From Mobula hypostoma (taxonomy: Eukaryota): a DNA stretch of 64,000 bases. Below the pieces are notes generated by a model. The model was given only the letters and a program-made list of their open reading frames with translations, ran no database searches and was not told the DNA's origin. Of this stretch, positions 1,451-55,324 are shown in pieces (position 1 is the first letter of the stretch; each line of letters begins with the position of its first letter). The stretch spans positions 107,324,001-107,388,000 of the forward strand of contig NC_086107.1 of NCBI RefSeq assembly GCF_963921235.1, in the 5' to 3' direction. The position numbers and the translations under genes were made by a program.

Positions 1451-1847
1451 AAAACAACTTGTTAAAGCCTTTAGTTTTCATAACGCTGCGTTCCCACCCA
1501 GAAATAGGGGTAGTTTCAGGGGACTGTTTCCCTCCGCTGAGTTGTCTGGGTTGAGGAGGGGGTGGGGGAAGACGGTACAGTCTCAGAAATAAAGAGGGAG
1601 GGGCGTTTGGGACTGAGATGAGGAGAAAATTCTCCCCCCCCCCGCAGGATGGAGGGGAGCACTTAACACGGGGGCAATCAGAAATAGATTTAATATCACT
1701 GACTTATATGGCATGATATTTAGCAGGTGGGGCTGCAGCTCTTTAGGGAAATTAGCAGCCCAGGTTTCCCACCGAGGCCTTCATTGGGTCTCATTCCCAA
1801 AGGTTGACTGTTTATTCATTTCTGCCTGATCTGTTGAGTTCCTCCAA

Positions 1848-1880
<33 letters not shown>

Positions 1881-4800
1881 CTCTGGATTACCAGCATCTG
1901 CAGAGCCTTTTGTGTAAATGATAGACTTCTTCCCCCCCCCCACCCCTATCTTTCTGGTCCTGATGAAGGGTTTCAGCCTGAAACTTTGACTGTTTATTCC
2001 CTTCCATAGATGCTGCCTGGCCTGCTGAGCTCCTCCAGCATGTTCTAGGTTTTGTTAAAGATTTCCGGCATCTGCAGGATCTCTAGCATCTATGAATTGA
2101 AATCTGCTGTTTTGTGACTGCAATCCAGTGTAAAGACATAAAATTACGATAAATCACAAAAAAATATAGTGCAAAACAAAAGAATGACAAGGTAGCGTTG
2201 GTGGGTTCATGAAACCGTTCAGAAATCTGATGGTGGGGGGGGGGAGAAGAAGCTGTTTCTGTCTTGTTTGGTGTGGGTCTTCAGGTTCCCTGATGGTAGT
2301 AGTGAGAAGGGGCATGTCTCAGATGGAGAAGGTCACCTTACTGATGGATGCCACCTTGTTGAGGCAGAATCTAATGCAGATGTCTTCAGTGGTTGTGCCC
2401 AAGATGGAGTTGGCCGGACAATTAATATTATGAGAATTGAGGGACGTGGGGGAAGTGCAAGAAAATGGGAAATGCAGGCCCTCCCCAGGTAACGAACAAC
2501 CAACTTGTGTCGAGCCCCTACAGAGCAATGAGCTTTTGAGAGAACAGCAGGATGCATTGACTGGTTGCTACGGGGCTGCAGCCATCTTCTGACGGGTAGG
2601 AATGGACTGTGGCAAGACCTTGCAGAGAATTTCAAAGGGTTGAACCAAAGGTCCTGGTTTAACTACAAACACAGGAGATTCTGCAGATGCTGGAAATCTT
2701 GAACAACACACACAAAATATGCTGGAGTGACTCAGCAGGTTAGGCAGCACCTATGGAAGGGAATAAACAGTAACGGGCTAGGATTAGTAGGTTAGGGGCA
2801 TGCTAAGTTGGTACTGGAGGCATGGTGACACTTACGATCTGCCCACAGAACACCTTCAGACTGCGTTGGTACCAATGCAGAACGATGCGTTTCACTGTAT
2901 GTTTGGATGTTTCGATGTGCATGTGACAAATAAAGTCAATATTTAATCTTTTTTACCTTTAACTCTTTGAAGGAGTGAAGAGTCAGGATGGTCATGAGGA
3001 AGGAGAGAGAAAATCCTGTTCTGAAGATGGACAATGAGTCAGCAGGAAGCCTAAGAATCTCCTGTGGAGCAACCAGTCAGGACAACATCTATGGCTTATG
3101 GTCTTGGTTGGAGTCACCAAGCAAAGAGCACAACAATTAGAGCTACTGTCTTACAGCTCCAATGACCCTCGGTCTAAACCTGATCTTGAATACTGACACT
3201 TACGATCTGCCCACAGAACACCTTCAGTTGGCATGCCCTTCTGTGAATATTTGAGCTCCCACTAATGTCTTCTCCATTCCAAAAGGAGTGCTGGTAATTG
3301 GCTAAAATTACACTGGATAACATTTGTTTTTGAAAGTTTTGCTTCCCCAGAAATTTTTTTGTTTGTTATTGACCTCTTGAAGCTGAACACAAATATAATT
3401 TCAGACTACTTACATCACGTAGGAATTTGGAGAAACAAGAAACTAACTTTTATTGAACATAATGTGTTTAATTGGATATCAGTGCTGACGCTTTGCAATA
3501 GTTCAAGTAAGCAAAAAGTGTTCTGTTGATGATTTTTATTTGGACTCAGTGTCTGAGGCTTCTCGCTTAAATGTCCAATGATAATCAGCCAGTATTGATG
3601 GATTCCAGTTGCCCTGCTACTGTTTCCCCATGACCACAATGTCCCGGTGAAACCTCTCACCATGATCGTCACTGATGGTGTCAAGAGTTGCAGGGAATGC
3701 AGAAAATGAATCTTTAGTGACATGTTGCACTTCATGGTTTCAGATTACATTGTGGGCAACATTTTAATTGACTTGAATTATGAATTGATATAACAAATAT
3801 AGGTGAATTTTTAAAAAGTGGTGAAGTGATAGGTAAATTTCATAGTAATTTTCATGATCAGCAGCCCAATATCCATAAGATACATCCAAATGTATTCAGG
3901 AAGCCAAATCTTTGTTGTCCAATGTAATTAATTAATTAGTTAATGGTGGGAAGTAGAATCAAAGTGGAGTTGATCGGTATGTATGAGACAGAATGAGTTG
4001 TGGGTATGGGGAAGTAAAGTGAGGGAGGATGAGACTAATTTGCCTTGGGAGCTGGCATAGCCTGATGGGCTGAATAGCCTCCTTCTATGCTACAAGATTT
4101 ACCCAAGCTTAGTTTGTTGCTAACTTGGTTTACTGGCATTCTACTGGGATGACCAGCCCATGGCCTCCTGTCTACAATGAGCAACGTCTCCTATTCCGTT
4201 TGGGTAACCTTCAACCTGATGGCATCGATTTCTCGAACTTCTGGTAATTTCCCCCCCTCCCCCTTTTAACCATTCCCTCTTATGGCTCCCCTCTTACCTC
4301 TTCACCTGCCAATCACCTCCCCATGCTGCCCCTCCTCCTCCCCTTTCTCCCATGGTCCACTCTCCTCACCTCTCAGATTCTTTCTTCAGCCCTATCATCA
4401 CCTCCCAGCTTCTCACTTCACCCCCTCCTTTCCTGCACCCACTTACCTTACCCTTCACCTGGTTTCACCTATCACCTGCCTGCTTGTGCTACTTCCCTTC
4501 TCCCACCTTCTTATTCTGACTTCTCCACCCCCCCCCCTTTCCAGTCCCCCAGTGAAGGGTCTCGGCACCAAACATCGACTGATTCTGTCTGACCTGATGA
4601 GTTCCTCTGGTATTTTGTGTGTGTTACCCTGAGATGATTTGAATTGTCTGCAGGCTAGCTACATATTACGAGTCTTTACTCTGCCTGATGCCACAGGGAC
4701 CTTCGTTAAACATCGCCCACTCACCCCTCGGTCCACTGCCGCTACTCAGCAGCCCCCCAGTTCAGTCCGAGTTCCACATCAACACCACACCCCAGCCTGA

Positions 4801-12033: not shown

Positions 12034-12489
12034 CGAGGGGTGATTGATAAGTTTGTGACCTAAGGTAGAAGGAGATGAGTTATTACCTTCAAACTTTTTG
12101 CATTTTCACTCAAAGAGTTGAACTGCACGTGCATGTAACAAGAGCTGTATAACTCATCTCCTTCTACCTAGGCCATGAACTTATCAATCACCCTTGCTGT
12201 GGATCACCTGGAGGTCCAAGACGCCCTCATTTCATGCATGTGCAGTTAAACCCTTTGAGTGATAATGCAGAAAGTTTGAAGTTAATAACTCATCTCCTTC
12301 TACCTTAGGCCACGAACTTGTCAATCACCCCTGCTGTGGCCCACTTCTACGAAGAAGGGATCCATATGCTCCACGACCGCTGGACTAAGTGTGTAAATGT
12401 AGTAGGGGACTATGTTGAAAAATAAGTGTGCCAGGTTTTCTAAAATTGACTCCTTCTACCTCGGCTATGAACTTATCAATCACCCCTTG
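12034..12489 (+). mobile_element. Mariner deletion derivative (MITE) with TA TSD
   Basis: TA|CGAGGGGTGATTGATAAGTT ... AACTTATCAATCACCCCTTG|TA terminal inverted repeats; 12345-12425 encodes FYEEGIHMLHDRWTKCVNVVGDYVEK*, a mariner transposase C-terminus. Confidence 0.9.
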
Positions 12490-19312: not shown

Positions 19313-19564
19313 TATTAGTGAAAGGGGACTGTACTTTCCTATCCTGAAATATCCTGGATCGCGAATGGTCTTGGGGGTGATGGAGTGAGATGATGATTGG
19401 GTTAATACTGGACTCAGGACTCTGGAAATGTGGAGAGGCTGGAAGCATTGTGGATCGTGGAATTCAGGCGATCAGAGTGAAAAGTCTGGAATCTGGTTGC
19501 CTCTGGGGATCAGTGGAGCCGTGGTTTGGGCCTCAAGGGAGCAAAAGTGAGATCAGAGAGTAGG

Positions 19565-19780
19565 CAACACACATCAAAGTTGCTGGTGAACGCAGCAGGC
19601 CAGGCAGCATCTCTAAGAAGAGGTACAGTCGACGTTTCAGGCCGAGACCCTTCGTCAGGACTCGGCCTGAAATGTCGACTGTACCTCTTCCTAGAGATGC
19701 TGCCTGGCCTGCTGCATTCACCAGCAACTTTGATGTGTGTTGCTTGAATTTCCAGCATCTGCAGATTTCTGGTTGTTTGC
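19565..19780. mobile_element. Fold-back Penelope-derived mini-element with 13-bp TSD
   Basis: Inverted arms of ~80 bp around a hammerhead motif plus a ~37-nt unpaired tail; TSD ATCAGAGAGTAGG at 19552-19564 and 19781-19793. Confidence 0.88.
19627..19662 (-). ncRNA. Minimal type I hammerhead ribozyme motif (Penelope-associated)
   Basis: Minus strand AGTC CTGACGA A GGGTCTCGGCCT GAAACGTC GACT: CUGANGA and GAAA cores, stem II, ACGU palindrome replacing stem III, GUC cleavage triplet, stem I AGTC/GACT. Confidence 0.75.
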
Positions 19781-21240
19781 ATCAGAGAGTAGGGGATGGT
19801 TGTGAAAATATTGCTGTCACGTTGGTGGGGATGGAGAGAGGTAGATTATCGGAATGGGACATCCCATTTTGGGGGACCCAAACTAGTGCCTGGATCAATT
19901 TGGTTCAACGTTCCTCATGTCTTCAGCTGTCTCTCAGGACCAAGAATGGCTTGCTTCCAAAGTCAAAGTCAAGTCTATTATCATACATTTGCTCTGCTCT
20001 GCTTTGCACTGAAACTGAGGCCACGGCCTGCTCCGGGCTTCGTGTCTGTGGGCTCTGTAATATTTACTCTGCTATGCGCTATACAGAGGCCGAGGCCGTG
20101 GCTATGCTCCGGCTGTGCTGGGCTTCGTGTCTATGGATTGCTTTCATTCTGAATGCGATTCAGAATGTACCTTCCTTAATCGCAGGATTCTGCAGAGAAT
20201 GGTGGGGACAGCCCAGCACATCTGTAATTGTGAACTTCCCATGATTCGGGACACTTGCAAAGACAGGTATGTAAAGAGGGCCTGAAGGATCACTGGGACC
20301 CGAGTCACCCCAATCACAATCTATTCCAGCTGCTACCATCCAGGAAACGGTACCGCAGCATAAAAGCCAGGACCCATGGGCTCCGGGACAGCTTCTTCCA
20401 CCAGGCCATCAGACTGATTAACTCACACTGATTTGAGTGTATTTCTATGTTACATTGACTGTTCTATTTATTATAAATCACTATGAATGCACATTGTACA
20501 TTTAGACGGAGACGTAACGTAAAGATTTTTACTCCTCATGGATGTAAGAAATAAAGTCAATTCAATTCAATTCAGTTCAATTCAATTTGTTTACTATTAC
20601 TGTTTGCATGATTTGGTTGTTTTTTCTCTGCACATTGGGTGTTAGTCGGTCTTCTTTTTGTTCATGGGTTCTTCTGGGTTTCCTGTTTCATGGCTGCCTG
20701 TAGGGAGATGAATCTCGAGGTTGTGTACTGTATACAGAACTTTGAACAAGCATGTGCATGCCACATTAGTTAGTTTAGTTAAGCCCATCACCCCTGCAGG
20801 GCACAGGAAACTGACAGCAGCTTGTCAGAGTCCACGAGTGTAAAGGTGTAATGAGAAACCTACTTGCAGTATCACCACAGGCACACGGCATCAGATGTAC
20901 ACCATTCAGAAGAAAAGCATAAATTATACAAGAAAGAACACAACTAGGACCAAAAAAAAAACATTGTGGTATAGCACTGAAATAGCGTTTAACTCTTTTT
21001 CACACAGGGAGTGGTGGGTGTGTGAATTGCACTGCCAGCGGCGGTGGTGGAAGCGGATACATTAGGGTCCTTTAGAGCCTCTTAGATATGTACATGGAGC
21101 TTAGAAAAATAGAGGGCTATGCGCTAGGGAAATTCTAGGCAGTTTCTAGAGTAGGTTACATGGTCGGCACAACATTGTGGGCCGAAGGGCCTGTAATGTG
21201 CTGTAGGTTTCTATGTTCTATGTCCTGTGTAAGTTTGGGC

Positions 21241-26149: not shown

Positions 26150-27451
26150 TGAGAATAAGGCATGTCCTTGGTGGCGGAGGTCCTTAATGATGGACGTTGC
26201 CTTTCTGAGGCATCCCTCCTTGAAAATGTCCTGGATACTACGGAGGCTAGTGCCCATGTTTGAGCTGGCTAAGTTTACAACTCTCTGTAGTTTACTTCGA
26301 TCCTGTGTAACAGCACCCCGACCACCTCCATACCAGATGGTGATGCAGCCAGTTAGAATGCTCTCCACGGTACATCTGTAGAAATTTGCAAGTGTTTTTG
26401 GTGACATACCAAATCTCCTCAAACTCCTAATGAAATATAGCTGCTACCGTGCCTTTCACAGATGCCAACTGACCTGTTGAGATTTTCCTGGTAATTTCGT
26501 TCTGCTCTCTTTTCCCTCATATGATCATCCCCTCGTGCAAGCTTTATTAGTAGTTTATAGTAACTTCTATGTCGCAGAGTCATAGAGCACCAAAGCACAG
26601 AAACAGGCTCTTTGGCCCATCTAGTCCATGCTAGCCTGGTCTGCCTGGTCTCTTTTCCTTGTTGCCAGACTGTAGCATTCCAAATCTCTCGTCCATGTAC
26701 CCATCAAAGCTTCTCTTAAGAGTCACTATTGACCTTGCACAGTAGTGTAGCGGATGGTGTACTGTTACTACAGTGCCAGCGACCCGCATTCACTTCCCGC
26801 CTCTGTCAGTACGGAGTTTGTACGTTCTCCACGTGACCGTGTCAATTTCTTCCGGGTGCTCCAGTTTCCTGCCACATTCCAAAGGTGTATGGTTTAGGGT
26901 TAGTGAGTTGTGGGCACGCTATGTTGGCGCAGGAAGCGTGGCGACACTTGCACAATCCCTGCTGATTGCATTTGACGCAAACAGCGCATTTCACCATATG
27001 TTTTGATACCTTTATGTAAAGCTATGCATCATTGCTGTAAAACAACAAACTTCACGGTATTCTGCGTGTCAGCGATAATAAGCCTGATTCTGATTCTGAA
27101 ACAACACACACCAAACACTGCAGGAACCCAGCAGATCAGGCAAGATCTACGGAAGTGAATAAACAGTCGACATTTCGGTCCGAGACCCTTCTTCAGGACT
27201 GGAAAGGACACCAGGACAAAAAGTTGGTGGAGGGGAAGGAGGCTGGCTAGAAGGTGAGTGGTAAAAGTAAAGAGCTGGAGAAGAGGGGATCTGATAGGAG
27301 AGGAGAGCGGACCATGGGAAAAGGGGAAGGAGAGGGTGACCTGGGTGCAATTGGCAGGTGAGAGGAGGTAAAAGGCCAGACTGGGAATTAGAAGAAGAGG
27401 GGAGGGGGAGGGAAAAAATTACTAGAAGGAGAAATCGATATTCATGCCATC

Positions 27452-27664
27452 TGCAAACACGAGGAATTCTGCAGATGCTGGAAATTCAAGCAACACACAT
27501 CAAAGTTGCTGATGAACGCAGCAGGCCAGGCAGCATCTCTAGGAAGAGGTACAGTCGACGTTTCGGGCCAAGACCCTTCGTCAGGACATCCAGTGTCGTT
27601 GACTGTACCTCTTCCTGGAGATGCTGCCTGGCCTGCTGTGTTCACCAGCAACTTTGATGTGTGG
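27452..27664. mobile_element. Fold-back Penelope-derived mini-element nested in an older Penelope fragment
   Basis: Near-identical arms to 19565-19780 in the opposite orientation; hammerhead core on minus strand 27554-27587; TSD-like TTCATGCCRTCTG at 27441-27453 and 27665-27677. Confidence 0.85.
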
Positions 27665-28486
27665 TTCATGCCGTCTGGTTGGAGGCCAGCAAGACAGAAT
27701 ATAAGGTGTCGCTCCTGCAACCTGAGGGTGGCTTCAGCTTGGCACGAGAGGAGACCACGGACCAACAACGTCAGATTCTGATTCTAATTCTCAGTTTCCT
27801 CTCAAAGAATCTAGTCGACTAGTTCCATTCCCTAGGGGGAGAGTTGCCCGTTTCTGCCACTTTCTGGATACACGAAGTCGTCCCAAGTTCACAGTCAGAT
27901 TTGTTAGTATAGCTAGCAAGTAGATAAAAGATGATGAGAATGCGTGGAAAATACAAACAATGTAAGATTAATGTAGAACTAGTGTAAATGGATGGTTGTT
28001 AGTAGTAAGCGTGGACTCAGCTGAATGGTGCTGTGCCTCCACGACTGTCGAACTGCCAGGATGGAAATGAAATCTCACCCCAGGACAAGATGGATGGCGA
28101 GCTCTGGTATGAAGCGGTTAACACGCTGCTATTAATGCATGCCACAGGAGAGCTGGGCGAGTATTGACTGAGAGGAAGGATTAAGGGATGGAGGCAGGTG
28201 GAGAAGATTGAAGGGGGCTTGGAGCATGACGCCTCCTGGGTTGCAGGGATCAGTTGAAGGGAAGTACTCAGCAGGAATCAGTAATGTATGACGGGTGGAT
28301 AATCTGGTATTTTGCTAGAGAAATAACTATCAAGAACCTTGCTTAAAAGGCCGCACAAAGGCTATTTCAGAGAACTTGATACCGGAGAATTAAATTTAAC
28401 GCAAACGACACCTCTTGACTTTGATACTTCGATGTACGCGTGACAGATAAAACTAATCTTTATCGTTCTTTATCTGTCCCTCGCAG

Positions 28487-28518: not shown

Positions 28519-28894
28519 GTAAGTGGTTTCGACCTGACGAGTGAGGACCGTGACTTCAAGCTGCACTCTGGAGAACTGTAGCTGGGGTATTGTTGGTTCT
28601 TCTGGACGACATAGCATCATAGAACATTACAGCACAGAAACAGGTCCTTCAGCCCATCTAGTCTGTACTGAATTATTATTCTTCCTAGACTCATCAACTT
28701 ACACCTGGACCCCTCCATACCCCTCCCATCTATGCTCCTCTTATGGGAGGAACCCAGAGCACCTGGAGCAAACCAATAAGTTCATGGTGATTATACAAAC
28801 TCCTTACAGACAGTGGCGGGAATTGAACCCAGATCTTACAGCCGACTCTGTAATGTGTTACACTAACCATGCGTTACACAGTGTTGCAAGCACA

Positions 28895-29890
28895 GTACGT
28901 GTGCTTGCAACACTGTGTGTCCGACAGAGTGATCAGCAGCACTGGGGCTCCACAGGGGACTGTCTTGTCTCCCTTTCTCTTCACCATTTACACCTCGGAC
29001 TTCTGCTACTGCACAGAGTCTTGTCATCTTCAGAAGTTTACTGATGACTCTGCCATAGTTGGATGCATCAGCAAGGGAGATGAGGCTGAGTACAGGGCTA
29101 CGGTAGGAAACTTTGTCACATGGTGTGAGCAGAATTATCTGTGGCTTAATGTGAAAAACACTAAGGAGCTGGTGGTAGACCTGAGGAGAACTAAGGTACC
29201 GGTGACCCCTGTTTCCATCCAGGGGGTCAGTGTGGACATGGTGGAGGATTACAAATACCTGGGGATACGAATTGACACTAAACTGGACTGGTCAAAGAAC
29301 AATGAGGCTGTCTACAAGAAGGGTCAGAGCCGTCTCTATTTCCTGAGGAGACTGAGGTCCTTTAACATCTGCCGGACGATGCTGAGGATGTTCTACGAGT
29401 CTGTGGTGGCCAGTGCTATCATGTTTGCTGTTGTGTGCTGGGGCAGCAGGCTGAGGGTGGCAGACACCAACAGAATCAACAAACTCATCCGTAAGGCCAG
29501 TGATGTTGTGGGGATGGAACTGGACTCTCTGACGGTGGTGTCTGAAAAGAGGATGCTGTCTAAGTTGCATGCCATCTTGGACAATGTCTCCCATCCACTA
29601 CATAATGGACTGGTTGGGCACAGGAGTACATTCAGCCAGAGACTCATTCCACCGAGATGCAACACAGAGCGTCATAGGAAGTCATTCCTGCCTGTGGCCA
29701 TCAAACTTTACAACTCCTCCCTTGGAGGGTCAGACACCCTGAGCCAATAGGCTGGTCCTGGACTTATTTCCTGGCACAATTTACATATTACTATTTAACT
29801 ATTTATGGTTTTATTACTATTTATTATTTATGGTGCAACTGTAACGAAAACCAAATTCCCCCGGGATCAATAAAGTATGACTATGACTAT
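28895..29890 (+). mobile_element. Rex1/Babar LINE, 5'-truncated, open RT C-terminal frame (ORF 28869-29750)
   Basis: GAPQGTVLSPFLFTIYTSD, KFTDD, YKYLG RT motifs; 3' end AATAAAGTATGACTATGACTAT; the same 3' end recurs at 34981-35266. Confidence 0.93.
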
Positions 29891-32502
29891 CCATACTGCT
29901 GACTGTTAGATTTCTGCTGGACTTGAGGTCTCCATCTTCAAACACAGTTGGCCAAAGGCTGCTTTGACACAGCGAAGGTCTGCCTTTGGAGTCATAGAGT
30001 GCTACAGCACAGAAACAGATCCTTCTGCCCATCTAGTCCATGCCAAACTATTAGTAAGCCTAGTCCTATTGCATAGCCCTCTGTAACCCTCCCAACCATG
30101 TACTTATCCAAACTTCTCTTGAATGTAGAAATTGAGCCCACATCCAGCACTTCCGCTGGCAGCTCGTTCCCCGCTCTCCCCGCCCTCTGAGTGGCAAAGT
30201 TCCCCCTCATGTTCCCTTAGATATTTCACCTTTTACCCTTAATCTAAGACCTAGTCACGATTCAAGATTGTTTATTGCCATTTTTCAGTACATGGGTGTA
30301 AAAGAGAAGAAAATTATTGTTACTCTGGATCCAATGCAGCTTTAAAAAAAGCACAACAGGTATAAAGAACACAATCAAAAAGCATAATAAATATAAATAC
30401 ATAAGTTTAGCTTACGTGTAGAATGATCAGCCAACACCTCCATCCATTAACCCTCCCACCCGCACTCTCACACAACCCAACTTCTCACAGCCTCAGTGGA
30501 AAAAGTCTGGTTGCATTTACCCTTTCTACACCCGTCATAATTTTGAATGTGAACATATTAAGAAAGGTCTGTCAAATGGATTTGATCCTGCGGTCAGAAA
30601 CAGAGAAGGGATAAGCACAAGAGATCGTGCGGATGCTGGAAGCCCAGAGTAACACGCACAAAATGCTGGAGGAACTCAGCAGGTCAGGCAGCATCTTCGG
30701 AAAGGAATAAGGAACCATTTCCAACCAAGACCTTTCACATGGACTGGAGAGGTACGGGGAAGAAGTCAGAATAAGAAGCTAGAAAAAGGGGAAGAAGTAC
30801 AAGCCAGCAGTAATAAGGGGACCTGATGAAGGGGAAGGTGGGATTGTGGGGAAAGGGGGAATGAAGTGAGAAGCTGGGAAGTGATCGGTGGAAGGAATAA
30901 AGGGCTGAGGAAGAAGGAATCTGACGGGAGAGGAGAGTGGACCACGGGAGAAAGTGAAGGAGGGGCAACAGAGGGAGGTGATAGGCAGGTGAGGAAAGGA
31001 GAAGGGGCAACAGGGGAACGAGAGAGGGGAATGGAAAAGGAGATGAGGGGGTGGAGGGAGAGATTACTGGATGTTGGAGAAATCGGTGCTCGTGCCGTCC
31101 AGTTGGAGACTACCCAGATGGTGTTATTTGTTCAACTTGAGAGTTCAAATTTCAAAGTAAACATTATCAAAGAACATCTATGCCACCATATACAACCCTG
31201 AGGTTCATTTTCTTGTGGGTATACTGAATAAATCTGTAGAATAATCACCTTAACAGAATCAATGAAAGACTGCCCAACTAGGGTGTTCAACCAGTGTGCA
31301 AGAGTGAACAAACCATGCAAATACAAAAAGAAGAAATAATAATAATAAATAAATAGCAACAAATATTGAGAAAATAAGATTAAGAGTCCGTGAAAGTGAC
31401 TCCATTGGTTGTGGGAACATTTCAATGAAGGGGCAAGTGAAGTTGAGTGAAGTTATCCCTTTTGGTTCAAAAGCCCAATGGTTGAGGGGTTGTAAGTGTC
31501 CCTGAACCTGGTGGTGGGAGCCCTGAAGCCTAGTACATTCTTCCTAATGGCAGTAGCAAGAACAGAGCATGACCTGGCTGGTGCGGGTCCCTGATGATGG
31601 ATGCTGCTTTCCTGTGACAGCGTTTCATACAGATGTGCTCAATGGTTGGGGGTGCTTAACCTGTGATGGACCGGGCCGTATCCACTACTTTCTGTTGGAA
31701 TTTCCATTCAAGGGCATTGGTGTTTCCATGCCAGGCTGTGATGCTGCCAGTCAATATACTCTCCAACTCACATCGATAGAATCTGTCAAGTGGCCTCATC
31801 ACGGTGGTGGAGGAGGCCATGGATTGCCATGTCGGAATGGGAATAGGCAGTGGAATTACCTCCTCAGAATTCAAAGCTAATATGGACTGTTGCTGTTTGT
31901 GGGAGCTTTCTGTGCACACGGAAGAGTGCCTGTAATGAACTTCGGGGTGTGCTGAGGTCCTGAAGGATGCCACAGAAATGCAAATCTCTCTTTCTCTCCT
32001 TCAGCCTTTCTGTCAATTCCCCAGTGCAATGATATTCCCGCTGATGTTAACCAGCTAGTAGCTTCTGGCTGGTGGTGAGAACGGAGAGCTCACTCCCAAT
32101 GGCCATGCTTGAGACGAACAGAATAGATGTACCGAGAGCAGGCTGGATGGTCAGATAGAAGGGAAAGGAACGGAGGACAGAAATTGACAGAAACACTCAG
32201 CAGGTCAGGCAGCATCCGTGGAAACGGCGGCACAGTAGCGCAGTGGTTAGCACCCTGCTTTACAGTACCAACGACCCAGGTTCAATTCCTGCTACTGCCT
32301 GTAAGGAGGTTGCACGTTCTCCCTGTGGTCGCGTGAGTTTCCTCCGGGTGCTCTGGTTTCCTACCACAGTCCAAAGTCGTACCAGTTGGTAAGTTAATTG
32401 GTTATTGTGAATTGTCCCGCGATTAGGCTAGGGATAAATTGGGGTGGGGGGTGTTGCTGAGTGGCACAGCATGAATTAAATCTGATTGAGATGTTGGAAA
32501 TA

Positions 32503-36989: not shown

Positions 36990-38829
36990 CCTGAGGCATC
37001 ACTCCTAGAAGGTGTCCTGGATACTACAAAGGCTAGTGCCCATGATGGAGCTGACTGAGCTTACAAGTCCCTGCAGCTTACTTTGATCCTGTGCAGTAGC
37101 CATTTGCCCCCTCCCCGATCTCCCCACCCACCAGAGAAGGTGATGCAGCCAGTTAGGATGCTCTCCACACCACATCTATAGAAACTTGCAAGAACCTTTG
37201 ATGTCGTGCCAAACTCCCAATGAAAGATAGTCGCCGTCGTGCCTTCTTTGTAGCTGCATCGATATGTTGGGTCCAGGATAGATTCTCAGAGATGTTGACA
37301 GCAAGGAGCCTGAATTCGCTCACTCTTTCCACTTCTGATCCCTCTATGAGGACTAGTGTGTGTTCCCTCGTCTTACCCTTTCTGAAGCCCACAATCAGTT
37401 GTTTGGTCTTACTGACGCTGAATGTAAGGATTTTGCTGCGACACCACTCAACTAGCTGATATATCTCACCCATGTACGCCCTCTGAAACTCTGCCGACAA
37501 TAGAACTTGAGAAGAAATGGCAATGGAGGATGAGCCAAAAATCATACTGAACAGCAGAACAGCATTGAAGGCTCGAAAGCTCCAAACCTGCTCCTGTTTC
37601 CTGTATCAGATCTGCCCCCAGCTTCAGAGTCACAGAATACAGAGACACACGGGACTGCAGATGCTGGAATTTGGAGCTGCACAGGACAAAGTTGCAGGAA
37701 CTCCTTGCATCTGTGAAGGAAAATGACCAGACCAGATGAAGGGCCTCGACCTGAACTGTTGACTGCTCATACCCCTTCACAGATGCTACCCGACCCGCTG
37801 ACTTCCTCCAGCTTTTTGCGTGCCGGCAAAGTTGTCATTCTGTGAAGAGCCACTTAGTGAGGGCTGTCCGCTGTATGCTGACACGTCAAAATAACCAAAG
37901 TCAATATCGTTCAATAAATGCGACAAATGCCTTCTCGCTCGAGGTTCTGGAATCAGCACCTTTAAGTTGAAGTGATGTGAGGGATGGGGCACCGGGCTTG
38001 CAATGAATAACAGTTAGGGTAAGTCAGACACACAAACAATTTTCTGCAAACTCTAACTGGGTAAATAAAACCAACAATTCAGCACAATTCCCTCAGCAAG
38101 TCATCTTTCTGTTATCCGATAATGTAGGTTTTTCATTTTAATGACAGATTCTTTAACAAGAATAAATTAGCAGTTGTCTTTCACTTCCCTTCAGAAGATA
38201 AATCATATCTTTCCAGTCACTACCACTTGTAACTGAGAGATCTGATCACTGCTGGGCCCGGAGAATGTTACCCACGTTTGCTGCGTTTTGGACCTGGACT
38301 TAGATGATAGACTTTTTTTCCAGTCTCATAGTTTTTTTTTATACGCTATGCTTTTTGCCTGATTGTTCTTGTTTTTTAGTGTGCGGGGAGGGGGATTTGG
38401 AGATCAATGTGCCTGTTCCATTTTTGTACAGGGAGCAGGGGTTTGGGGGCTGATGATCGTGCTACAGTTCCTTTCTTTCTTGGTTTCATGGATAGCTGGA
38501 GAAGGCGAGTTCCAGGGTTGTGTACTTTGATAATAAAATGGACCTTTTGAACCACAGCTAATGACATCGCCTGCCCATTTTGGTGGGTCACTGTTCACCA
38601 GCTCAAGAAGATTGCTGCCTCCAGATCTCCTTCCTACTTTCCCCAGGACCTCTTATTCCTGTGTAAAACCCCCACTGTCTGCAGAACTCAGATCAAGAAG
38701 AGTTTCACATTTGATACGAAGGTCTTTGCTGAGAATATGTGGCTTTTGGTATCAACAATATCAAGAAATATTTAAATAAAATCTTTAACCTAAATGTTCC
38801 TTGGTGCATTTATCAGACAAAAGGACCAT

Positions 38830-40409: not shown

Positions 40410-41095
40410 ACAGAATTGGACGACCCTTTAGAACAGAGATGAGGAGGAATTTCTTGAGCCAGAGGGTGGTGAATCTGTGGAATTCATTGCCACAGACGGC
40501 TGTGGAGGCCAAAACAATGGGTATATTTAAAGTGGGAGGTGATAGGTTCTTGATTGGTAAGGCTGACAAAGGTTACGGAGAGAAGGCTGGACAATGGGGT
40601 TGAGCGGGTAAATAAATAAGTTGAATGATGGTACAGATTTGATGGGCTGAAAGGTCTAATTCTGCTCCAATGTCCTATGTTCTTACGGTCACACCCGAAT
40701 GAAACGTTGGTTAATTGACTACTATGTTATCCCTAGATGTGTAGACGAGCAGGAGATGGGAATTTGAGAGAAGCTGATGGAAGCAAAGAGAATAAAACAC
40801 AGACAGTAAGTGTATAAATGGGTGTTTGATGGTTGCCGTGGGCTCACTGGACTCTGTAACACTATCAAAGGATTATGGGGGAGATGGAACTGGACATGCC
40901 CCGGATTGAAGGAGACTGAGGAGAAGAGAACATGGACAAATTCTTAAACAAAGATGGGCTTTGGAAAATTATTTATTTATTTACATTGAGCTGCAGTGTG
41001 GAATAGGCCCTTCCAGACTTTCGAGCCGCGCCAGCCAGCAATCCCCCGAGTTAATCCCAGCCTAATAACAGGTCATTTTACAATCTACCAATTGG

Positions 41096-41308
41096 AACAC
41101 ACACACAAAACGCTGGAGGAACGCAGAAGGCCAGGCAGCATCCGCAGAAAAGAATAAGCAGTCGACACTTCAGTCCCAGTGAAGGGTCTCGGCTCGAAGT
41201 GTCGACTGTTTACTCTTTTCCACAGATGCTGCCTGGCCTGCTGAGTTCCTCCAGCACTTTGAGTGTGTTGCTCGGATTTCCAGCATCTGCAGATATCCTC
41301 GTGTTTGC
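41096..41308. mobile_element. Older fold-back Penelope-derived mini-element inserted in a V-SINE
   Basis: Inverted arms, degenerate hammerhead, tail; flanks AATCTACCAATTGG (41082-41095) / AACCTACCAACTGG (41309-41322). Confidence 0.75.
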
Positions 41309-43834
41309 AACCTACCAACTGGCACGTCTCTGTGGGAGGAAACCGGAGCATCTGGTAGGAAATCCACACGGTCACAGGGAGAACATACAAACTCCTTACA
41401 GGCAGCGGCGGGAATTGAACCTGGGTCACTGGAACTGCTAAGCGTTGTGCTAAGCATTAGGCTAACATTACAAAACTGGAGTAGTGTTGGTTGGTGCAAT
41501 GAGTGAACGTGACTTCGGGCACAGACAGTGGAGCACTGGGTGAGTCAAGTTTAAGCAGTCCAGTGTAATAGGTAGACCAAGATGTAATGTGAGTGCAAAT
41601 GCAAAGGAAGATTTGCATCTGTACAAATACTATCAGCCTTCTCAGTACATGAACGTGGTTTGTGACCAATCATCAAAGATAAGCGAGCGATTACTCCTTG
41701 TGTCCATGGGGCAACTGGGCTGAAGGAGCCACCTCCTTCTCACTTATGAGAGAGAGAGAGAGAGAGAGAGCGCCTGTGGTATGTGGAATGCCGGGTGAAA
41801 CGCGAAGTCTTTGGGGGAACTGCAAGTCTGTGTCTTTGCTGTTGCTTTGCTCACACTTGAGTGCTCGGTGGTGGGTGCTGATGCTTTTTTTTTGCCGGTG
41901 GGGGGGAGGGGGGATCATTGCTTGCTGTCACTTAAGCGCGGGAGAGAGGGGAGCTGGGGGGACTTTGGGGTTCTTACGTTTGACTGTCGTTCATTCTTTG
42001 GGGCACTCCTCTGTTTTCGTGGATGATTGTGAAGAAAAAGCATTTCAGGATGTATATTGTATACATTTCTCTGACATTAATTTGCAACTTTGAACCTTTA
42101 ACTGCTCATTTCCATATTGTACATTCTAAGGCAGAGGATGAATGAGATGGTCCCAGGTCTTTCTCCAGCAACTAAGCAACCATTCCTGTTATTACGTTAA
42201 TAGAACATAGAAATCTACAGCACATTACAGGCCCTTCGGCCCACAATGTTGTAACCTACTCTAGAAACTGCCTAGAATTTCACTACCGCATGGCCCTCTA
42301 TTTTTCTAAGCTCCATGTATCTATTAAAAGACCCTATTGTATCCCCCTCTACCACCTTCACCGGCAGTGCATTCCACACACTCACCACTCTCTGTGTGAA
42401 AAACTTACCCCTGACATCTCCCTTGTACCTACTTCCAAGCACCTTCAAACTATGCCCCTTTGTGTCAGCCATTTCAGCCCTGGGAAAAAGCCTCTGGCTA
42501 TCCACACAATCAATGCCTCTCATCATCTATCAGGTCACCTCTCATCCTCCGTCGCTCCAAGGAGAAAAGGCCAAGTTCGCTCAGCCTACTCTCATAAGGC
42601 ACACTCCCCAATCCAGGCAACATCCTTATTAATGGTGGAACCATAGTAGTGGTTAGTGCATCGCTTTCCACCACTGTCTGTGAGGAGTTTGCACGTTCTC
42701 CCCGTGACAGCAAGAGTTTTCTCCTACTGCTCGAGTTCCTCCCCCACCCCCCCGATTCCAATTACGTACAGGCTAGGATTAGTAAGTTGTAGAAATGTTG
42801 GCAGAGGTGTGGCGACACTTGCGGGCTGCCCCCAGATCATCCTCAGACTGTCTGGACCGTTGACGTAAGCAACGCATTTCACTGCATGCTTCGATGTTTT
42901 GATATGCATGTGACACATAAAACTTAGTCCCATCTGGCACCAATCAGTCATTCCAGGGGCTTGACATCAGCTCGTGATTCTACGTCCAAATGGATAGTTG
43001 TAACATTGTTGTGATCCTGTTACTGCATTATTAAATCAGAGCTCTGGACTAATTGAAAACAAGTTGCCTGTTCCTCTAGCAATAAGATTAGGGCAGATTT
43101 TGGCACAGCTCCATTTTCCAGCCTGTTTCCCATAACCCTGGACTTTCCCCCCCGCAACCCTCATAGATCAAAAATCTCCCTGTCTGACTCTTGAATAGTT
43201 TCAGTGCTCTTCCTTCATAGCTTCATAGCCTCCTGGGGTAGAGAATTCCAAATGCTCGCGAGCCCGTTTTAAATGGGAGATCCCTTATTGTAAACTCTGC
43301 CCCCTTGTTCTTGATCGGGTAACCAGGGCAACATCATTGCACCATCTGACAAGCCAGAGGGCTAATGAGTTGAAATGTTACAACAGCAGTTGGAGAATCT
43401 GAAAGCTGCGGTCATTAAATGTGATTTAGATTCTGCCAGATTGTCATAGAATCATATTTGGTTTAGGAAGAGAAAGATTATCTGGTTTGAGCTGATTCTA
43501 TTCCCAGGTTAACGCAAGTAACTATCGAATATCTGCTGAAGGGTAATGTTGATGAATCAGACGGGTATCAGAGAAATTTCTTGGTCTTCAGTGCTCTCTC
43601 ACCAAATTTTAAAAAAAGCTGTAAGTGCAAATCCATAAGACACTTGGAGCAGAATTAGGCCATTTGGGCCATTGAGTCAGTTCCGCCATTCCATCATGCT
43701 AATCCTCTCAATCCCATTCTCTTCCCTTCTTCCCATAAACGTTGACACCCTTACTAATCAAGAACCTATCGACCTCTGCTCCAAATATACCCGGTGCTAT
43801 TAAACCTCATTCTGATGAACAGGAGTTATCCACG

Positions 43835-48429: not shown

Positions 48430-49332
48430 ATGGTACTGAGGGAGTGTCACATTGTCAGAGGGACAGTACCGAGGGAGTGTCACACTGTCGGAGGGACAGT
48501 ACTGAGGGAGTGCCTCACTGTCAGAGGGACGGTACCGAGGGAGTGTCACACTGTCGGAGGGACAGTACTGAGGGAGTGCCTCACTGTCAGAGGGACGGTA
48601 CCGAGGGAGTGTCACACTGTCGGAGGGAAGGTATCGAGGGAGTGTCACACTGTCGGAGGGACGGTACCGAGGGAGTGTCTCACTGTCGGAGGGACGGTAC
48701 CGAGGGAGTGCCTCACTGTCGGAGGGACAGTACCGAGGGAGTGTCTCACTGTGGGAGGGACGGTACCGAGGGAGTGCCTCATTGTCGGAGGGACGGTACC
48801 GAGGGAGTGTCTCACTGTGGGAGGGACGGTACCGAGGGAGTGTCACACTGTCAGAGGGACAGTACTGAGGGAGTGTCTCACTGTCGGAGGGACAGTACTG
48901 AGGGAGTGTCTCACTGTGGGAGGGACGGTACCGAGGGAGTGTCACACTGTCAGAGGGACAGTACTGAGGGAGTGTCTCACTGTCAGAGGGACAGTACTGA
49001 GGGAGTGTCACACTGTCAGAGGGACGGTACCGAGGGAGTGTCTCACTGTCAGAGGGATAGTACTGAGGGAGTGCCACACTGTCGGAGGGACGGTACTGAG
49101 GGAGTGTCTCACTGTCAGAGGGACAGTACCGAGGGAGTGTCACACTGTCAGAGGGACAGTACTGAGGGAGTGTCTCACTGTCAGAGGAACGGTACTGAGG
49201 GAGTGTCTCACTGTCAGAGGGACAGTACTGAGGGAGTGCCACACTGTCGGAGGGACAGTACTGAGGGAGTGTCACACTGTCAGAGGAACGGTACTGAGGG
49301 AGTGTCACACTGTCAGAGGGACAGTACTGAGG
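48430..49332. repeat. 33-bp minisatellite (GAGGGAGTGTCACACTGTCAGAGGGACAGTACT), ~27 copies
   Basis: Directly visible tandem array; 11-aa periodicity in ORFs 48235, 48270 and 48430. Confidence 0.97.
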
Positions 49333-49794: not shown

Positions 49795-50203
49795 GTGAGT
49801 GTGGGGGTGGGTATGGGGAGGAAGTGAAGTGTCGTCTGGCAAATACCAGCTGAACGCAATACCTGGGATTTATTAATGATTTTTCATGCGTGGTAGGATA
49901 TCATTGAGTGATTGGGCATGGGGGAGGGGAGGATGAGGTCAGAGGGCAAGGTTTAGTCCTAGGGTCACGGAAGCACCACAGGCTAACTTGTCTATGACAA
50001 CCACTGCATCTTCCCTGCCAGTCCAGCTGCCCAGGCTCTCTTCAGCTTCCTCTTTCAGAACCCTGGGATGTAGTTCATCTGGTCCAAGTGACTTATCTAC
50101 CTTTAGATATAAACAAAATAATCTGCAGATGCTGTGATCAAAACAACACTTTCAGTACGCTGGATGAACTCAGCAGGTCGGGCAGCATCGGTTAGAAACG
50201 ATG

Positions 50204-50239
50204 AGTCGACGTTTCGGGCCGGAACCCTTCATCAGGACT
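50204..50239 (-). ncRNA. Minimal type I hammerhead ribozyme motif, intact
   Basis: Minus strand AGTC CTGATGA A GGGTTCCGGCCC GAAACGTC GACT. Confidence 0.8.
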
Positions 50240-51128
50240 GAAGAATGAAAGATGGGGAAGGATTTGAAGAATGCTTGTAGCTTCAGTTGAAAGACCAGTA
50301 ATTTGAAAGACAAAGGGGTGGGGGAGAGGAAGCATTAACGTCATAACCCTGAAAACAATGGGTGGTAGAAGGAGGAGGCGGAACCATGAGGGAGCTGGGG
50401 GAGGGGGTAGAGTGAAATAGGGATAGAGGAAGGGAGGGGGAGGGAATTACCGGAAGTTGGAGAATTCTATGTTCATACCAAGGGATTGGAGACTACCTAG
50501 ACGGTATATGAGGTGTTGCTCCTCCAACCTGTTTAGCCTCATCATGGCAGTAGAGGAGGCCATGTATGGACATATCTCCAGGTGAGGCAACACTTCACTT
50601 GTGAGTCTGTTGGGGTCATCTATTGCATCCGGTGCTCCCGGTGCGGCCTCCTCTACATCGGTGAAACCCGACGCAGATTGGGGGACCACTTCGTCGAGCA
50701 CCTCCACTCCGTCCGCCAAAACAGACAGGATCTCCTGGTAGCCACCCACTTCAACTCTGCTTCCCATTCCCATTCAGGTATGTCCATACATGGCCTCCTC
50801 TACTGCCATGATGAGGCTAAACTCAGGTTGGAGGAGCAACACCTCATATACCGTCTAGGTAGTCTCCAGCCCCTTGGTATGAACATAGAATTCTCCAACT
50901 TCCGGTAATAACTTCTGGTAATTACTTCCCCCTCCCTTCCCCTATCCCTATGTCACTCTGCCTCCTCCCCCAGCTCCCTCATGGTTCCGCCTCCTCCTTC
51001 TACCACCCATTGTTTTCAGGGCTATGAAGTCATTGCTTCCCCTTCCCCACCCCTTTGTCTTTCAAGTTACTGGTCTATCAACTGACGGTACAGGCATTCT
51101 TCAAATCTTTCCCCATCTTTCATTCTTC

Positions 51129-51164
51129 AGTCCTGACGAAGGGTTCCGGCCCGAAACGTCAACT
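51129..51164 (+). ncRNA. Minimal type I hammerhead ribozyme motif with a stem I mismatch next to the cleavage site
   Basis: AGTC CTGACGA A GGGTTCCGGCCC GAAACGTC AACT. Confidence 0.65.
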
Positions 51165-51745
51165 CATCATTTCTAACTGATGCTGCCCGACCTGCTGAGT
51201 TCATCCAGTGTACTGAAAGTGTTGCCTTTAGATGTTTCAGCTTCCCAATCACCTTCCCTCTAGTAATAGCAATTGCATTCACTTATGCCCGCAGACATTC
51301 TTGATCTTCCAGCATCTTGCTAATGTCTTCCACAGTGAAGGCAGATGCAAACTACTTATCTAGTTTACCCGCATTTCCTTGCCCCTCCCCCACTACTACC
51401 ACTCCAGCATCATTTTCCAGCAATGCGATATCTACTCTCACCTTTGATATTATAATAACATACTTTGATATTATTGGCTAGCTTACCTTCATATTTCATC
51501 TTTTCCCTCCTTATAAGACCATAAGATGTAGGAGCAGAATTAGGCCACTTGGCCGATTGAGCCAGCTCCGCCATTTCAAAGAACATAGAACATAGAATAG
51601 TACAGCACAGTACGGGCCCTTCGGCCCACAATGTTGTGCTGACCCTCAAACCCTGCCTCCCATATAAGCCGCCACCTTAGATTCCTCCATATACCTGTCT
51701 AGTAGTCTCTTAAACTTCACTAGTGTATCTGCCTCCACCACCGAC

Positions 51746-54538
51746 TCAGGCAGTGCATTCCACGCACCAACCACTCTCTGAGTAAAAAAACCTTCCTCTA
51801 ATATCCCCCTTGAACTTCCCATCCCTTACCTTAAAGCCATGTCCTCTTGTATTGAGCAGTGGTGCCCTGGGGAAGAGGTGCTGGCTATCCACTCTATCTA
51901 TTCCTCTTATTATCTTGTACACCTCTATCATGTCTCCTCTCATCCTCCTTCTCTCCAAAGAGTAAAGCCCTAGCTCCCTTAATCTCTGATCATAATGCAT
52001 ACTCTCTAAACCAGGCAGCATCCTGGTAAATCTCCTCTGTACCCTTTCCAATGCTTCCACATCCTTCCTATAGTGAGGTGACCAGAACTGGACACAATAC
52101 TCCAAGTGTGGCCTAACCAGAGTTTTATAGAGCTGCATCATTACATCGCGACTCTTAAACTCTATCCCTCGACTTATGAAAGCTAACACCCCATAAGCTT
52201 TCTTAACTACCCTATCCACCTGTGAGGCAACTTTCAGGGATCTGCGGACATGTACCCCGAGATCCCTCTGCTCCTCCACACTACCAAGTATCCTGCCATT
52301 TACTTTCTACTCTGCCTTGGAGTTTGTCCTTCCAAAGTGTACCACCTCACACTTCTTCGGGTTGAACTCCATCTGCCACTTCTCAGCCCACTTCTGCATT
52401 CTATCAATGTCTCTCTGCAATCTTTGACAATCCTCTACACTATCTACAACACCACCAACCTTTGTGTCATCTGCAAACTTGCCAACCCACCCTTCTACCC
52501 CCACATCCAGGTCGTTAATAAAAATCACGAAAAGTAGAGGTCCCAGAACAGATCCTTGTGGGACACCACTAGTCATAATCCTCCAATCTGAATGTACTCC
52601 CTCCACCACCACCCTCTGCCTTCTGCAGGCAAGCCAATTCTGAATTCACCTGGCCAAACTTCCCTGGATCCCATGCCTTCTAACTTTCTGAATAAGCCTA
52701 CCATGTGGAACCTTGTCAAATGCCTTACTAAAATCTATATAGATCACATCCACTGCACTACCCTCATCTATATGCCTGGTCACCTCCTCAAAGAACTCTA
52801 TCAGGCTTGTCAGACACGATCTGCCCTTCACAAAGCCATGCTGACTGTCCCTGATCAGACCATGATTCTCTAAATGCCTATAGATCCTATCTCTAAGAAC
52901 CTTTTCCAACAGCTTTCCCACCACAGACGTAAGGCTCACTGGTCTATAATTACCCGGACTATCCCTACTACCTTTTTTGAACAAGGGAACAACATTCACC
53001 TCCTTCCAATCCTCCGGTACCATTCCCGTGGACAGCGAGGACATAAAGATCCTAGCCAGAGGCTCAGCAATCTCTTCTCTCGCCTTGTGGAGCAGCCGGG
53101 GGAATATTCCGTCAGGCCCCGGGGACTTATCTGTCCTAATGTATTTTAACAACTCCAACACCTCCTCTCCTTTAATATCAGCATGCTCCAGAACATCAAC
53201 CTCACTCATATTGTCCTCACCATCATCAAGTTCCCTCTCATTGGTGAATACCGAAGAGAAGTATTCATTGAGGACCTCGCTCACTTCCACAGCCTCCAGG
53301 CACATCTTCCCACCTTTATCTCTAATCGGTCCTACCCTCATTCCTGTCATCCTTTTTTTCTTCACATAATTGAAGAATGCCTTGGGGTTTTCCTTTACCC
53401 TACTCGCCAAGGCCTTCTCATGCCCCCTTCTTGCTCTTCTCAGTCCCTTCTTAAGCTCCTTTCTTGCTTCCCTATATTCCTCAATAGACCCATGTGATCC
53501 TTGCTTCCTAAACCTCATGTATGCTGCCTTCTTCCTCCTGACTAGATTTTCCAACTCACTTGTCACCCATGGTTCCTTCACCCTACCATTCTTTATCTTC
53601 CTCACCGGGACAAATTTATCCCTTACATCCCGCAAGAGATCTCTGAACATCGACCACATGTCCATAGTACATTTCCCTGCAAAAACTTCATCCCAATTCA
53701 CACCCGCAAGTTCTAGCCTTATAACCTCATAATTTGCCTTTCCCCAATTAAAAATGTTCCTGTCCTCTTTGATTCTATCCTTTTCCATGATAATTATAAA
53801 GGCCAGGGAGCGGTGGTCACTGTCCCCCAGATGCTCACCCACTGAGAGATCTGTGACGTGACCCGGTTCATTACCTAGTACTAGATCTAGTATGGCATTC
53901 CCCCTGGTCGGCCTGTCCACATACTGTGACAGGAATCCATCCTGGACACACTTAACAAATTCTGCCCCATCTAAACCCTTGGAACTAATCAGGTGCCAAT
54001 CAAGATTAGGGAAGTTAAGGTCACCCATGATAACAACCCTGTTATTTTTGCACCTTTCCAAAATCTGCCTCCCAATCTGTTCCTCTGTATCTCTGCTGCT
54101 ACCAGGGGGCCTATAGAATACCCCCAGCAGAGTAACTGCTCCCTTCCTGTTCCTGACTTCCACCCATATTGACTCAAAAGAGGATCCTGCTACATTACCC
54201 ACCCTTTCTGTAGCTGTAATAGTATCCCTGATCAGTAATGCCACCCCTCCTCCCCTTTTTCCTCCCTCTCTATCCCTTTTAAAGCACTGAAATGCAGGAA
54301 TATTGAGAATCCATTCCTGCCCTGGTGCCAGCCAAGTCTCTGTAATGGCCACTACATCATAATTCCATGTATGTATCCAAGCTCTCAGTTCATCACCTTT
54401 GTTCCTGATGCTTCTTGCATTGAGGTACACACATTTCAGCCCTTCTACCTTACTGTCTTTACACTGTTTATTCTGCTTCTCTTTCCTCAAAGCCTCTCTG
54501 TATGTTAGATCTGGCTTTACTCCATGCACTTCTTTCAC
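51746..54538 (-). pseudogene. CR1 ORF2 (AP endonuclease + reverse transcriptase), frameshifted near ~52640 and ~52300
   Basis: YLNARSIRNK, ITETWL, GDLN, LDLV and SDH (APE); KSPGPDG, NYRPVSL, QHGF, DFSKAFD, GVPQGSVLGP and KFADD (RT); spread over ORFs 52646-54538, 52307-52612 and 51746-52279. Confidence 0.93.
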
Positions 54539-54573
54539 TGCTCTATCGCTCTGGGTCCCATCCCCCTCGTAAA

Positions 54574-55155
54574 TTAGTTTAAACCCTCCCGAACCATGCT
54601 AGCAAACCTACCTGCAAGGATATTGCTCCCTCTCGAGTTCAGGTGCAACTCATCCAATCTGTACAGGTCCCACCTTCCCCAGAAGAGATCCCAATGATCT
54701 AAAAATCTAAAACCCTGCTCCCTGTACCAACTCCTCAGCCACGCATTCAACCGCCATCTCCTCCAATTCTTACCATCTCTGTCATGTAGCACTGGCAGCA
54801 ATCCTGAGAACATCACCCTTGAGGTCCTGTTCTTCAGCCTTCTGCCTAATTCCCGAAACTCACACTTCAGGACCTCATCCCTCTTCCTGCCTATGTCGTT
54901 GGTCCCAACATGTATCACGACTTCTGGTTGCTTTCCCTCTCGTACCAGGATATCGTGCACCCGGTCAGAGACATCCCGGACCCTGGCACCCGGGAGGCAA
55001 CAAACCATGCGCGTATCCTTCTCACATCCACAAAATCTCCTGTCTGCTCTCCTGACTATAGAGTCTCCAATGATGACAGCTCTCCTCTTCTCTGTCCCAC
55101 CCTTCTGCACCTCAGGGTCAGACTCAGTGCCAGAGGCCCTGCCACCGTGACTCAC
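54574..55155 (-). CDS. CR1 ORF1 SGNH/GDSL esterase domain (partial)
   Basis: IIGDSIVR, CLPGA, IHVGTND and DELHLN blocks. Confidence 0.9.
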   Translation of the reverse strand: MSHGGRASGTESDPEVQKGGTEKRRAVIIGDSIVRRADRRFCGCEKDTRMVCCLPGARVRDVSDRVHDILVREGKQPEVVIHVGTNDIGRKRDEVLKCEFRELGRRLKNRTSRVMFSGLLPVLHDRDGKNWRRWRLNAWLRSWYREQGFRFLDHWDLFWGRWDLYRLDELHLNSRGSNILAGRFASMVREGLN

Positions 55156-55324
55156 ACCTGGTCGGTCGTCCCGCCAACAGTATCCAGGATGGTAAACTTA
55201 TTATTCAGGGGAATAATTCAGGCTGATCCATTTTTCCTCTCAGCCCCAATCTCCTGCCTTCTCCCCATATCCCTTCATGCCCTGACGAACTATGGCTTTT
55301 TGGTTAAATACCTTCAGTTAGTTT

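Follow-up and report, generated by a model that had tools for sequence, protein, structure and literature searches.

The 64-kb stretch of DNA analysed here (the window) contains five two-armed copies of a repeat, designated A to E, and a tentative sixth, F, and their coordinates are given in Table 1. Every arm is the 3′ end of a single repeat type, and the profile built from the window copies gave 26 matches, 25 of them at E ≤0.003. The element is numbered from the first C of the CUGANGA box of its hammerhead motif (+1), with the cut after +28. PMC3846280, PMC4209133, PMC8557442 and PMC11167929 are cited below for the portions examined.

Table 1. Two-armed copies of the Penelope-like element (PLE) and associated features in the window.
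Feature	Position	Strand	TSD	Description
A, left TSD	19552..19564	+		13 bp, perfect; direct-repeat search and chance control
A, inverted tail-less PLE end	19565..19662	-		From the AC-rich boundary (+94) to -4
A, complete minimal hammerhead	19626..19662	-		CTGACGA, helix II, GAAACGTC; predicted to be sequestered in the long hairpin
A, sense arm	19661..19742	+		Begins at +13 inside helix II, without CUGANGA
A, one-sided PLE tail	19743..19780	+		38 nt
A, right TSD	19781..19793	+		
B	27454..27664	-	27441-27453 / 27665-27677, 13 bp, 1 mismatch	211 bp, 74-nt arms; same subfamily as A, opposite polarity
Host of B	27099..27770	-	Own TSD	Older single-armed, tail-less PLE 3′ end
C	41096..41308	+	41082-41095 / 41309-41322, 14 bp, 2 mismatches	213 bp, 73-nt arms; older subfamily
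D	37640..37825			Degraded two-armed copy
E	50109..51224		50100-50108 / 51225-51233, 9 bp	1116 bp, two-armed, architecture as in A, tail on one arm
Endonuclease of the parent PLE	50579..50908	+		GIY-YIG C-terminal fragment, 109 aa, open to the stop
F (tentative)	~1722..1916			Highly decayed; turn inside the hammerhead

The anatomy that the first-pass annotation had given for A, an inverted repeat of about 80 bp with a tail of about 37 nt and a perfect 13-bp TSD, was recovered with small adjustments. The inverted-repeat search of the window returned arms of 86 nt each (19564-19649 and 19658-19743) that are 95% complementary, the tail is unpaired and present on one side only, and the whole element measures 216 bp. 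A perfect direct repeat of 13 nt at comparable lag was found at none of 1500 random window positions, where the longest chance perfect direct repeat was 11 nt, at a single position. The RNA fold of A (-171.3 kcal/mol, z -21) was equalled by none of 200 shuffles, and the hairpin is thereby predicted to form dsRNA if transcribed, as had been proposed. The intact hammerhead of A lies on the minus strand within the tail-less arm, with a predicted cut between 19631 and 19630, and the two arms meet at a 2-nt microhomology (19661-19662). The junction word occurs once in the window, with up to 2 mismatches allowed, and the joined flanks of A have no other match within the window. A 226-codon open frame across A was taken as chance.

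The same architecture and size recur in B and C, as had been noted. In each of A to E a single arm bears the tail. B lies within an older insertion of an element of its own type. Its arms and those of A are identical in 93 of 97 positions, and nonetheless the junctions, outer ends and polarity of the two differ, which upholds the earlier view that the copies formed independently. The inclusion of D, previously described as a loose likeness, held in part: both of its arms match the family profile (E 7e-10 and 3e-23), but only 29 of 45 aligned letters are identical between them. D is absent from the window's list of inverted repeats of at least 30 nt, and the TSD search at D found none. The left arm of F is weak, with a profile E of 9.5e-5 and a pairwise score reached by 22 of 500 shuffles.

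The long copy E, missed in the first-pass annotation, has intact hammerhead core boxes in both arms and holds a fragment of the parent endonuclease. The translation of this fragment, VIYCIRCSRCGLLYIGE, gave a Pfam GIY-YIG match at E 0.0029 and 18.3 bits, under the cut-off of 22.6, and is 80-87% identical to batoid PLE proteins (Hypanus, Mobula), pointing to a ray as the probable host. The batoid homologues examined have a YIDD/YIDK RT stretch upstream of the endonuclease; the RT of the PLE family was not found in the 64-kb window. The parent endonuclease is tied to A via common terminal sequence at 75-80% identity. The Penelope origin suggested earlier thus stands, with the arms being PLE ends and the endonuclease lying beside the same end in E, and the two-armed units are almost certainly dead, severely 5′-truncated insertions of an endonuclease-bearing Penelope-like element.

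The arms of E differ at 26 of 434 positions, which fits ordinary post-insertion divergence and is no proof of two templates. An origin of the arms from different templates was rejected, 11 of the 26 differences being departures of the right arm from the family majority among the variants listed, which fits symmetric ageing. A 13-bp tandem duplication at the endonuclease stop codon (50897-50929) is found in the right arm of E only.

Other features in the window include, at 52646-55197 (-), a 207-codon esterase-like frame overlapping in a different phase the start of a 650-codon EN/RT frame, a layout that we take to be that of a CR1-like LINE. An RT C-terminal fragment of 298 codons from another non-LTR family lies at 28854-29750 (+), and a 33-bp tandem array with 27 copies, 89% matches and several open frames at 48433-49332. 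The inverted repeat at 12036-12332 is unrelated, having 110-nt arms at 88%, internal repeats and no PLE similarity, and is possibly a DNA-transposon derivative.

The element family and its hammerhead motif

Two of the protein homologues (P0003 and P0005) carry the linker CKRNKCYTC (CX4CxxC), and the window fragment begins downstream of it. A CX2-5CxxC linker between RT and endonuclease is a mark of Neptune/Nematis (PMC8557442), and judged from these homologues the family looks Neptune-type. The family is very abundant: 33,867 contigs of run X1 match 683 of its bases at 85% likeness, a figure that is not a copy number. Pattern scans for family copies gave no hit in metagenome, genome or viral contigs. 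The protein-led scan likewise gave none in viral contigs and a single distant locus in genome contigs (L001, 43-1275), where the PLE end was not accompanied by an inverted copy. The locus, a PLE 3′ end at 49% identity whose match is followed after about 130 nt by a minimal hammerhead, lies on a contig of an Endozoicomonas MAG and probably stems from animal host DNA that entered the bin.

The motif CTGACGA, helix II, GAAACGTC, with CAGTC and GACTG on its flanks, fits the minimal hammerhead of metazoan PLEs and was assigned against the published description of that motif (PMC4209133). Rfam reported no hammerhead at the gathering score, and relaxing E to 10 added nothing beyond generic hairpin and miRNA models below cut-off. 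The core boxes are intact in A, B and E and mutated in C and D, the core of C reading CCAGTGA with GAAGTGTC present in both arms. In an equilibrium folding model of the hairpin transcripts, the helix I pairs of A, B and C had probability 0.0, and these units are not expected to work as ribozymes.

The CCAGTGA core variant is common to two copies (4536-4560 and 41171-41190), which suggests that a subfamily lacking a functional core has spread. A pyrimidine-rich 50/54-bp tandem array at 1-981 has weak similarity to the pyrimidine-rich PLE 3′ UTR.

Where the arms meet

None of the five two-armed copies shares its junction with another in the window, in agreement with the earlier remark that the central junctions differ. 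In A the tail-less arm reaches -4 and the tailed arm starts at +13. In B the tailed arm starts at -3 and the tail-less arm extends up to +25, with a 9-nt insert separating them, and in C the corresponding positions are -5 and +21, with an overlap of at least 1 nt. The tail-less arm of D runs to -6, its tailed arm starts somewhere between about +29 and +34, and the turn falls on the helix I word. E turns inside the endonuclease gene, where the tailed arm starts at -342 and the tail-less arm reaches -555. The inversion point is therefore not always in or beside the hammerhead, as had been claimed, but lies there in 4/5 two-armed copies, or 5/6 when the tentative F is counted.

The outer ends are near-constant in A, B and C, at +91 to +96 and at about +131/+132. 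With these ends fixed, a turn in the hammerhead is unavoidable for a unit of about 215 bp, and size and turn position are hence one observation. The longer arm stops at -4, -3, -5 and -6 in A, B, C and D, that is at the 5′ edge of helix I in all four short copies, whereas the seven single-armed copies measured start at -33 or at -228 and beyond, none of them at -3 to -6.

The clustering of turns at the hammerhead may be real. Breakpoints there were counted in 4/5 two-armed against 3/11 single-armed copies (p = 0.11, not significant), and in 5/6 with F included (p = 0.05), in Fisher tests that were post hoc, with classes assigned by hand and n = 5 two-armed copies. Two of the three single-armed copies classed as short (2667-2773 and 32178-32236) are interrupted by other repeats, and the small pieces at 15523 and 26450 and a non-significant match at 25589 were omitted from the classes. 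Helix I is itself a built-in CAGTC/GACTG inverted repeat, and in most copies a pyrimidine tract followed by AG ends at -3. In the Penelope element of Drosophila, the 5′ end of helix I coincides with the end of an intron (PMC4209133).

Among public contigs on the right arm of E, two of the 15 joints listed switch strand, these 15 being the best of 333, chosen by support and as such a biased sample of breakpoints, with 12 further entries of unstated kind. One strand switch, seen in runs X1 and X5, is at -469/-292 in the ORF, and no inverted self-match accounts for it; the other, in run X5, is at +11/+44. An entry from +32 to -4 in run X9, its kind unstated, would be a D-type junction if the strand switches. 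Biased as it is, this sample shows that both ORF turns and hammerhead turns exist outside the window.

Formation of the two-armed copies

The favoured reading, to which a probability of about 60% is given, is that of two primings, one per nick, at two RT start sites, the cDNAs being joined head to head. The GIY-YIG endonuclease would cut the two strands at sites 9-14 bp from each other, and each of the free 3′ ends would prime reverse transcription on uncut element RNA. The cDNA of the tail-less arm would be initiated at the AC-rich internal site and that of the tailed arm 38 nt further 3′. Both would halt early, and their 3′ ends would be joined head to head, either at a microhomology of 0-5 nt or with a short insert between them, the TSD arising by gap filling. 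Where both stops fall in the structured hammerhead region a hairpin of 190-216 bp would result, and longer runs would give a unit like E. The hammerhead would then serve as a stall or annealing hot spot, through the inverted repeat of helix I, rather than as an enzyme.

Several observations point to this course of events. The tail-less arm of A has -4 to +12, missing from the tailed arm, while the tail is found in the tailed arm only, and the tail-less arms of D and E likewise exceed the tailed arm, by about 35-40 nt and about 200 nt, respectively. A folded-back cDNA copies only what it holds, so the absence of nesting in A, D and E, where each arm holds sequence that the other lacks, argues against the simple RT fold-back of the first-pass annotation. 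The tail-less boundary also terminates single-armed copies with TSD candidates at 27099 (12 bp, perfect, but in a short-repeat context), 15687 (13 bp, 2 mismatches) and 4626 (9 bp, 1 mismatch), which makes it a start site in its own right. In each of the five two-armed copies, moreover, the cut site is spanned by one arm or both, indicating an uncut template. Further points in favour are the published PLE layout, the in vitro activities of the Poseidon protein described below, the mutated core of C, the parent endonuclease next to the PLE end and the two strand-switching joints in public contigs.

Fold-back or self-priming is considered unlikely. Here a single cDNA, or alternatively an antisense template, would fold onto itself at a short inverted match within its own sequence, copying would then produce the second arm, and the unstable centre would later be trimmed asymmetrically. 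Self-priming was proposed for PLE junction palindromes (PMC3846280), and B and C, in which the tail-less arm lies within the tailed arm, are equally compatible with it and fit without additional steps. D turns on the helix I word, and the insert of B includes TCCAGT, which equals -7 to -2 in most window copies, as though a longer palindrome had lost its centre. In three of the five copies, however, the tailed arm alone must additionally have lost sequence (16, about 35 and about 200 nt), and the stop of the copied arm at an AC-rich site that also ends single-armed copies is left unexplained. Asymmetric trimming of a perfect palindrome could nonetheless mimic A, D and E, and the microhomologies of 1-2 nt in A, C and E are near chance.

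That hammerhead cleavage sets the turn, with RT running off the terminus that cleavage leaves at +29 and afterwards turning or joining, is improbable. Four of the five two-armed copies do turn within -6 to about +34, and the tailed arm of the degraded D, the only compatible copy, could begin at +29. The breakpoints of A, B and C (-4/+13, -3/+25 and -5/+21) are off the cut, every copy has an arm across it, the core of C is mutated and E turns in the ORF, and a cause in ribozyme cleavage was not sustained. Minimal hammerhead monomers did not cleave in vitro (PMC4209133), and in Poseidon insertion was normal with a dead hammerhead, mutants being without effect (PMC11167929). The ribozyme is probably not the cause of the turn as an enzyme.

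An equally improbable alternative is a mobile non-autonomous hairpin family, a MITE-like retro-element in which a preformed palindrome would be transcribed and then integrated as a complete unit by the PLE enzyme. The recurring size of 211-216 bp would suit such a family, and pLTR cis-sequences suffice for mobilisation in trans (PMC3846280). The size, however, follows from the fixed outer ends, and no two of the five junctions in the window are alike, even between A and B at 96% identity. The term MITE-like was accordingly too strong, as nothing shows the hairpin unit itself moving. Very improbable is a DNA-transposon MITE, or an inverted duplication that arose by chance or in assembly. Short, non-coding units with a long inverted repeat and a TSD do resemble a MITE, but the reading is largely refuted by the 38-nt tail on one side only and the variable TSDs of 9-14 bp without fixed sequence, and the sequence is entirely of PLE-end origin with arm divergence partly of CpG type.

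Two primings alone do not explain why the longer arm stops at -3 to -6 in all four short copies, and the in vitro support for them comes from a Poseidon element, whereas the family here looks Neptune-type. An extended reading is put forward tentatively and as rather doubtful, namely that both nicks prime at separate RT start sites and that the hammerhead, through its structure, is a strong barrier or a point of joining at the 5′ edge of helix I. The stop could be due to annealing of helix I, to the acceptor-like pyrimidine tract with AG at -3, or to an RNA 5′ end.

The two-armed copies are ordinary debris of a known insertion pattern, and their value lies in the data they offer on how PLE inverted ends are formed. 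At about five two-armed copies per 64 kb, the genome could allow a direct count separating two-primer joining, fold-back and cleavage. Were the structural-stop reading true, the ribozyme motif would have a non-catalytic role and the genome would be seeded with many ready-made dsRNA hairpins predicted to act against the element. If many hairpins lie in transcribed introns they are predicted to be a large source of dsRNA.

Comparison with known systems

The proposed two-primer mechanism resembles L1 twin priming. There the other nick primes as well, which leaves an inverted 5′ piece, joined through microhomology, together with a TSD, and this piece has no overlap with the 3′ piece. Both arms of the window units, by contrast, begin near the 3′ end and overlap, giving an inverted repeat. 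MITEs are small, non-coding, hairpin-forming and TSD-flanked, with terminal inverted repeats, a fixed TSD and uniform interiors. The window units differ in having asymmetric ends, with a 38-nt unpaired tail between one arm and the TSD, non-uniform interiors and TSDs of 13, 13, 14 and 9 bp (A, B, C and E) of unrelated sequence; with no identical junctions in the window, the variable TSD length agrees with the earlier exclusion of a DNA-transposon MITE. Retrozymes have direct or tandem hammerhead-bearing repeats that release monomer RNA, unlike the inverted arms and the one complete motif per short unit found here.

The motif of A resembles the minimal hammerheads of metazoan PLEs in its CUGANGA and GAAA boxes, short helix I, extra nucleotide before helix II, palindromic 15.2-16.2 and lack of helix III (PMC4209133). 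The same source notes dual hammerhead motifs on opposite strands, 100-700 bp apart, from which the short hairpins differ in having one full motif left, predicted to be sequestered, and mutated cores in C and D.

The Poseidon PLE protein, predicted to be dimeric, cuts and extends both strands in vitro, and its reverse transcription begins at two internal sites bounding the tail (PMC11167929). Poseidon_Ac (PAc) is thus like the window family, with two fixed outer ends, one of them AC-rich, that bound the tail, and with an uncut RNA template; the CX4CxxC linker found in the protein homologues of the window family is missing from Poseidon. Inverted junctions are not addressed in the examined portions of that paper. 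How PLEs form inverted ends is described as undefined in PMC8557442, and the literature searched, which covered few subscription journals and no supplements, yielded no study of such mini-hairpins or of PLE twin priming.

In the published PLE layout an inverted 5′-truncated copy adjoins the 5′ end, and a tail of 30-40 bp is often found at one end only (PMC8557442), such units lying inside TSDs of 8-10 bp (PMC3846280). Pen2a_Av and its relatives (PMC3846280; scheme in PMC8557442) match the window units in the head-to-head inverted 5′-truncated copy, the one-end 30-40-bp tail and the single TSD. The sense copy in the window is however shorter than 140 nt, and the whole unit becomes a hairpin of 190-216 bp. 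The TSDs of the short copies are 13-14 bp as against 8-10 bp in the rotifer examples examined, and there are five two-armed units in 64 kb. The short hairpins are the shortest form of the published back-to-back PLE insertion pattern.
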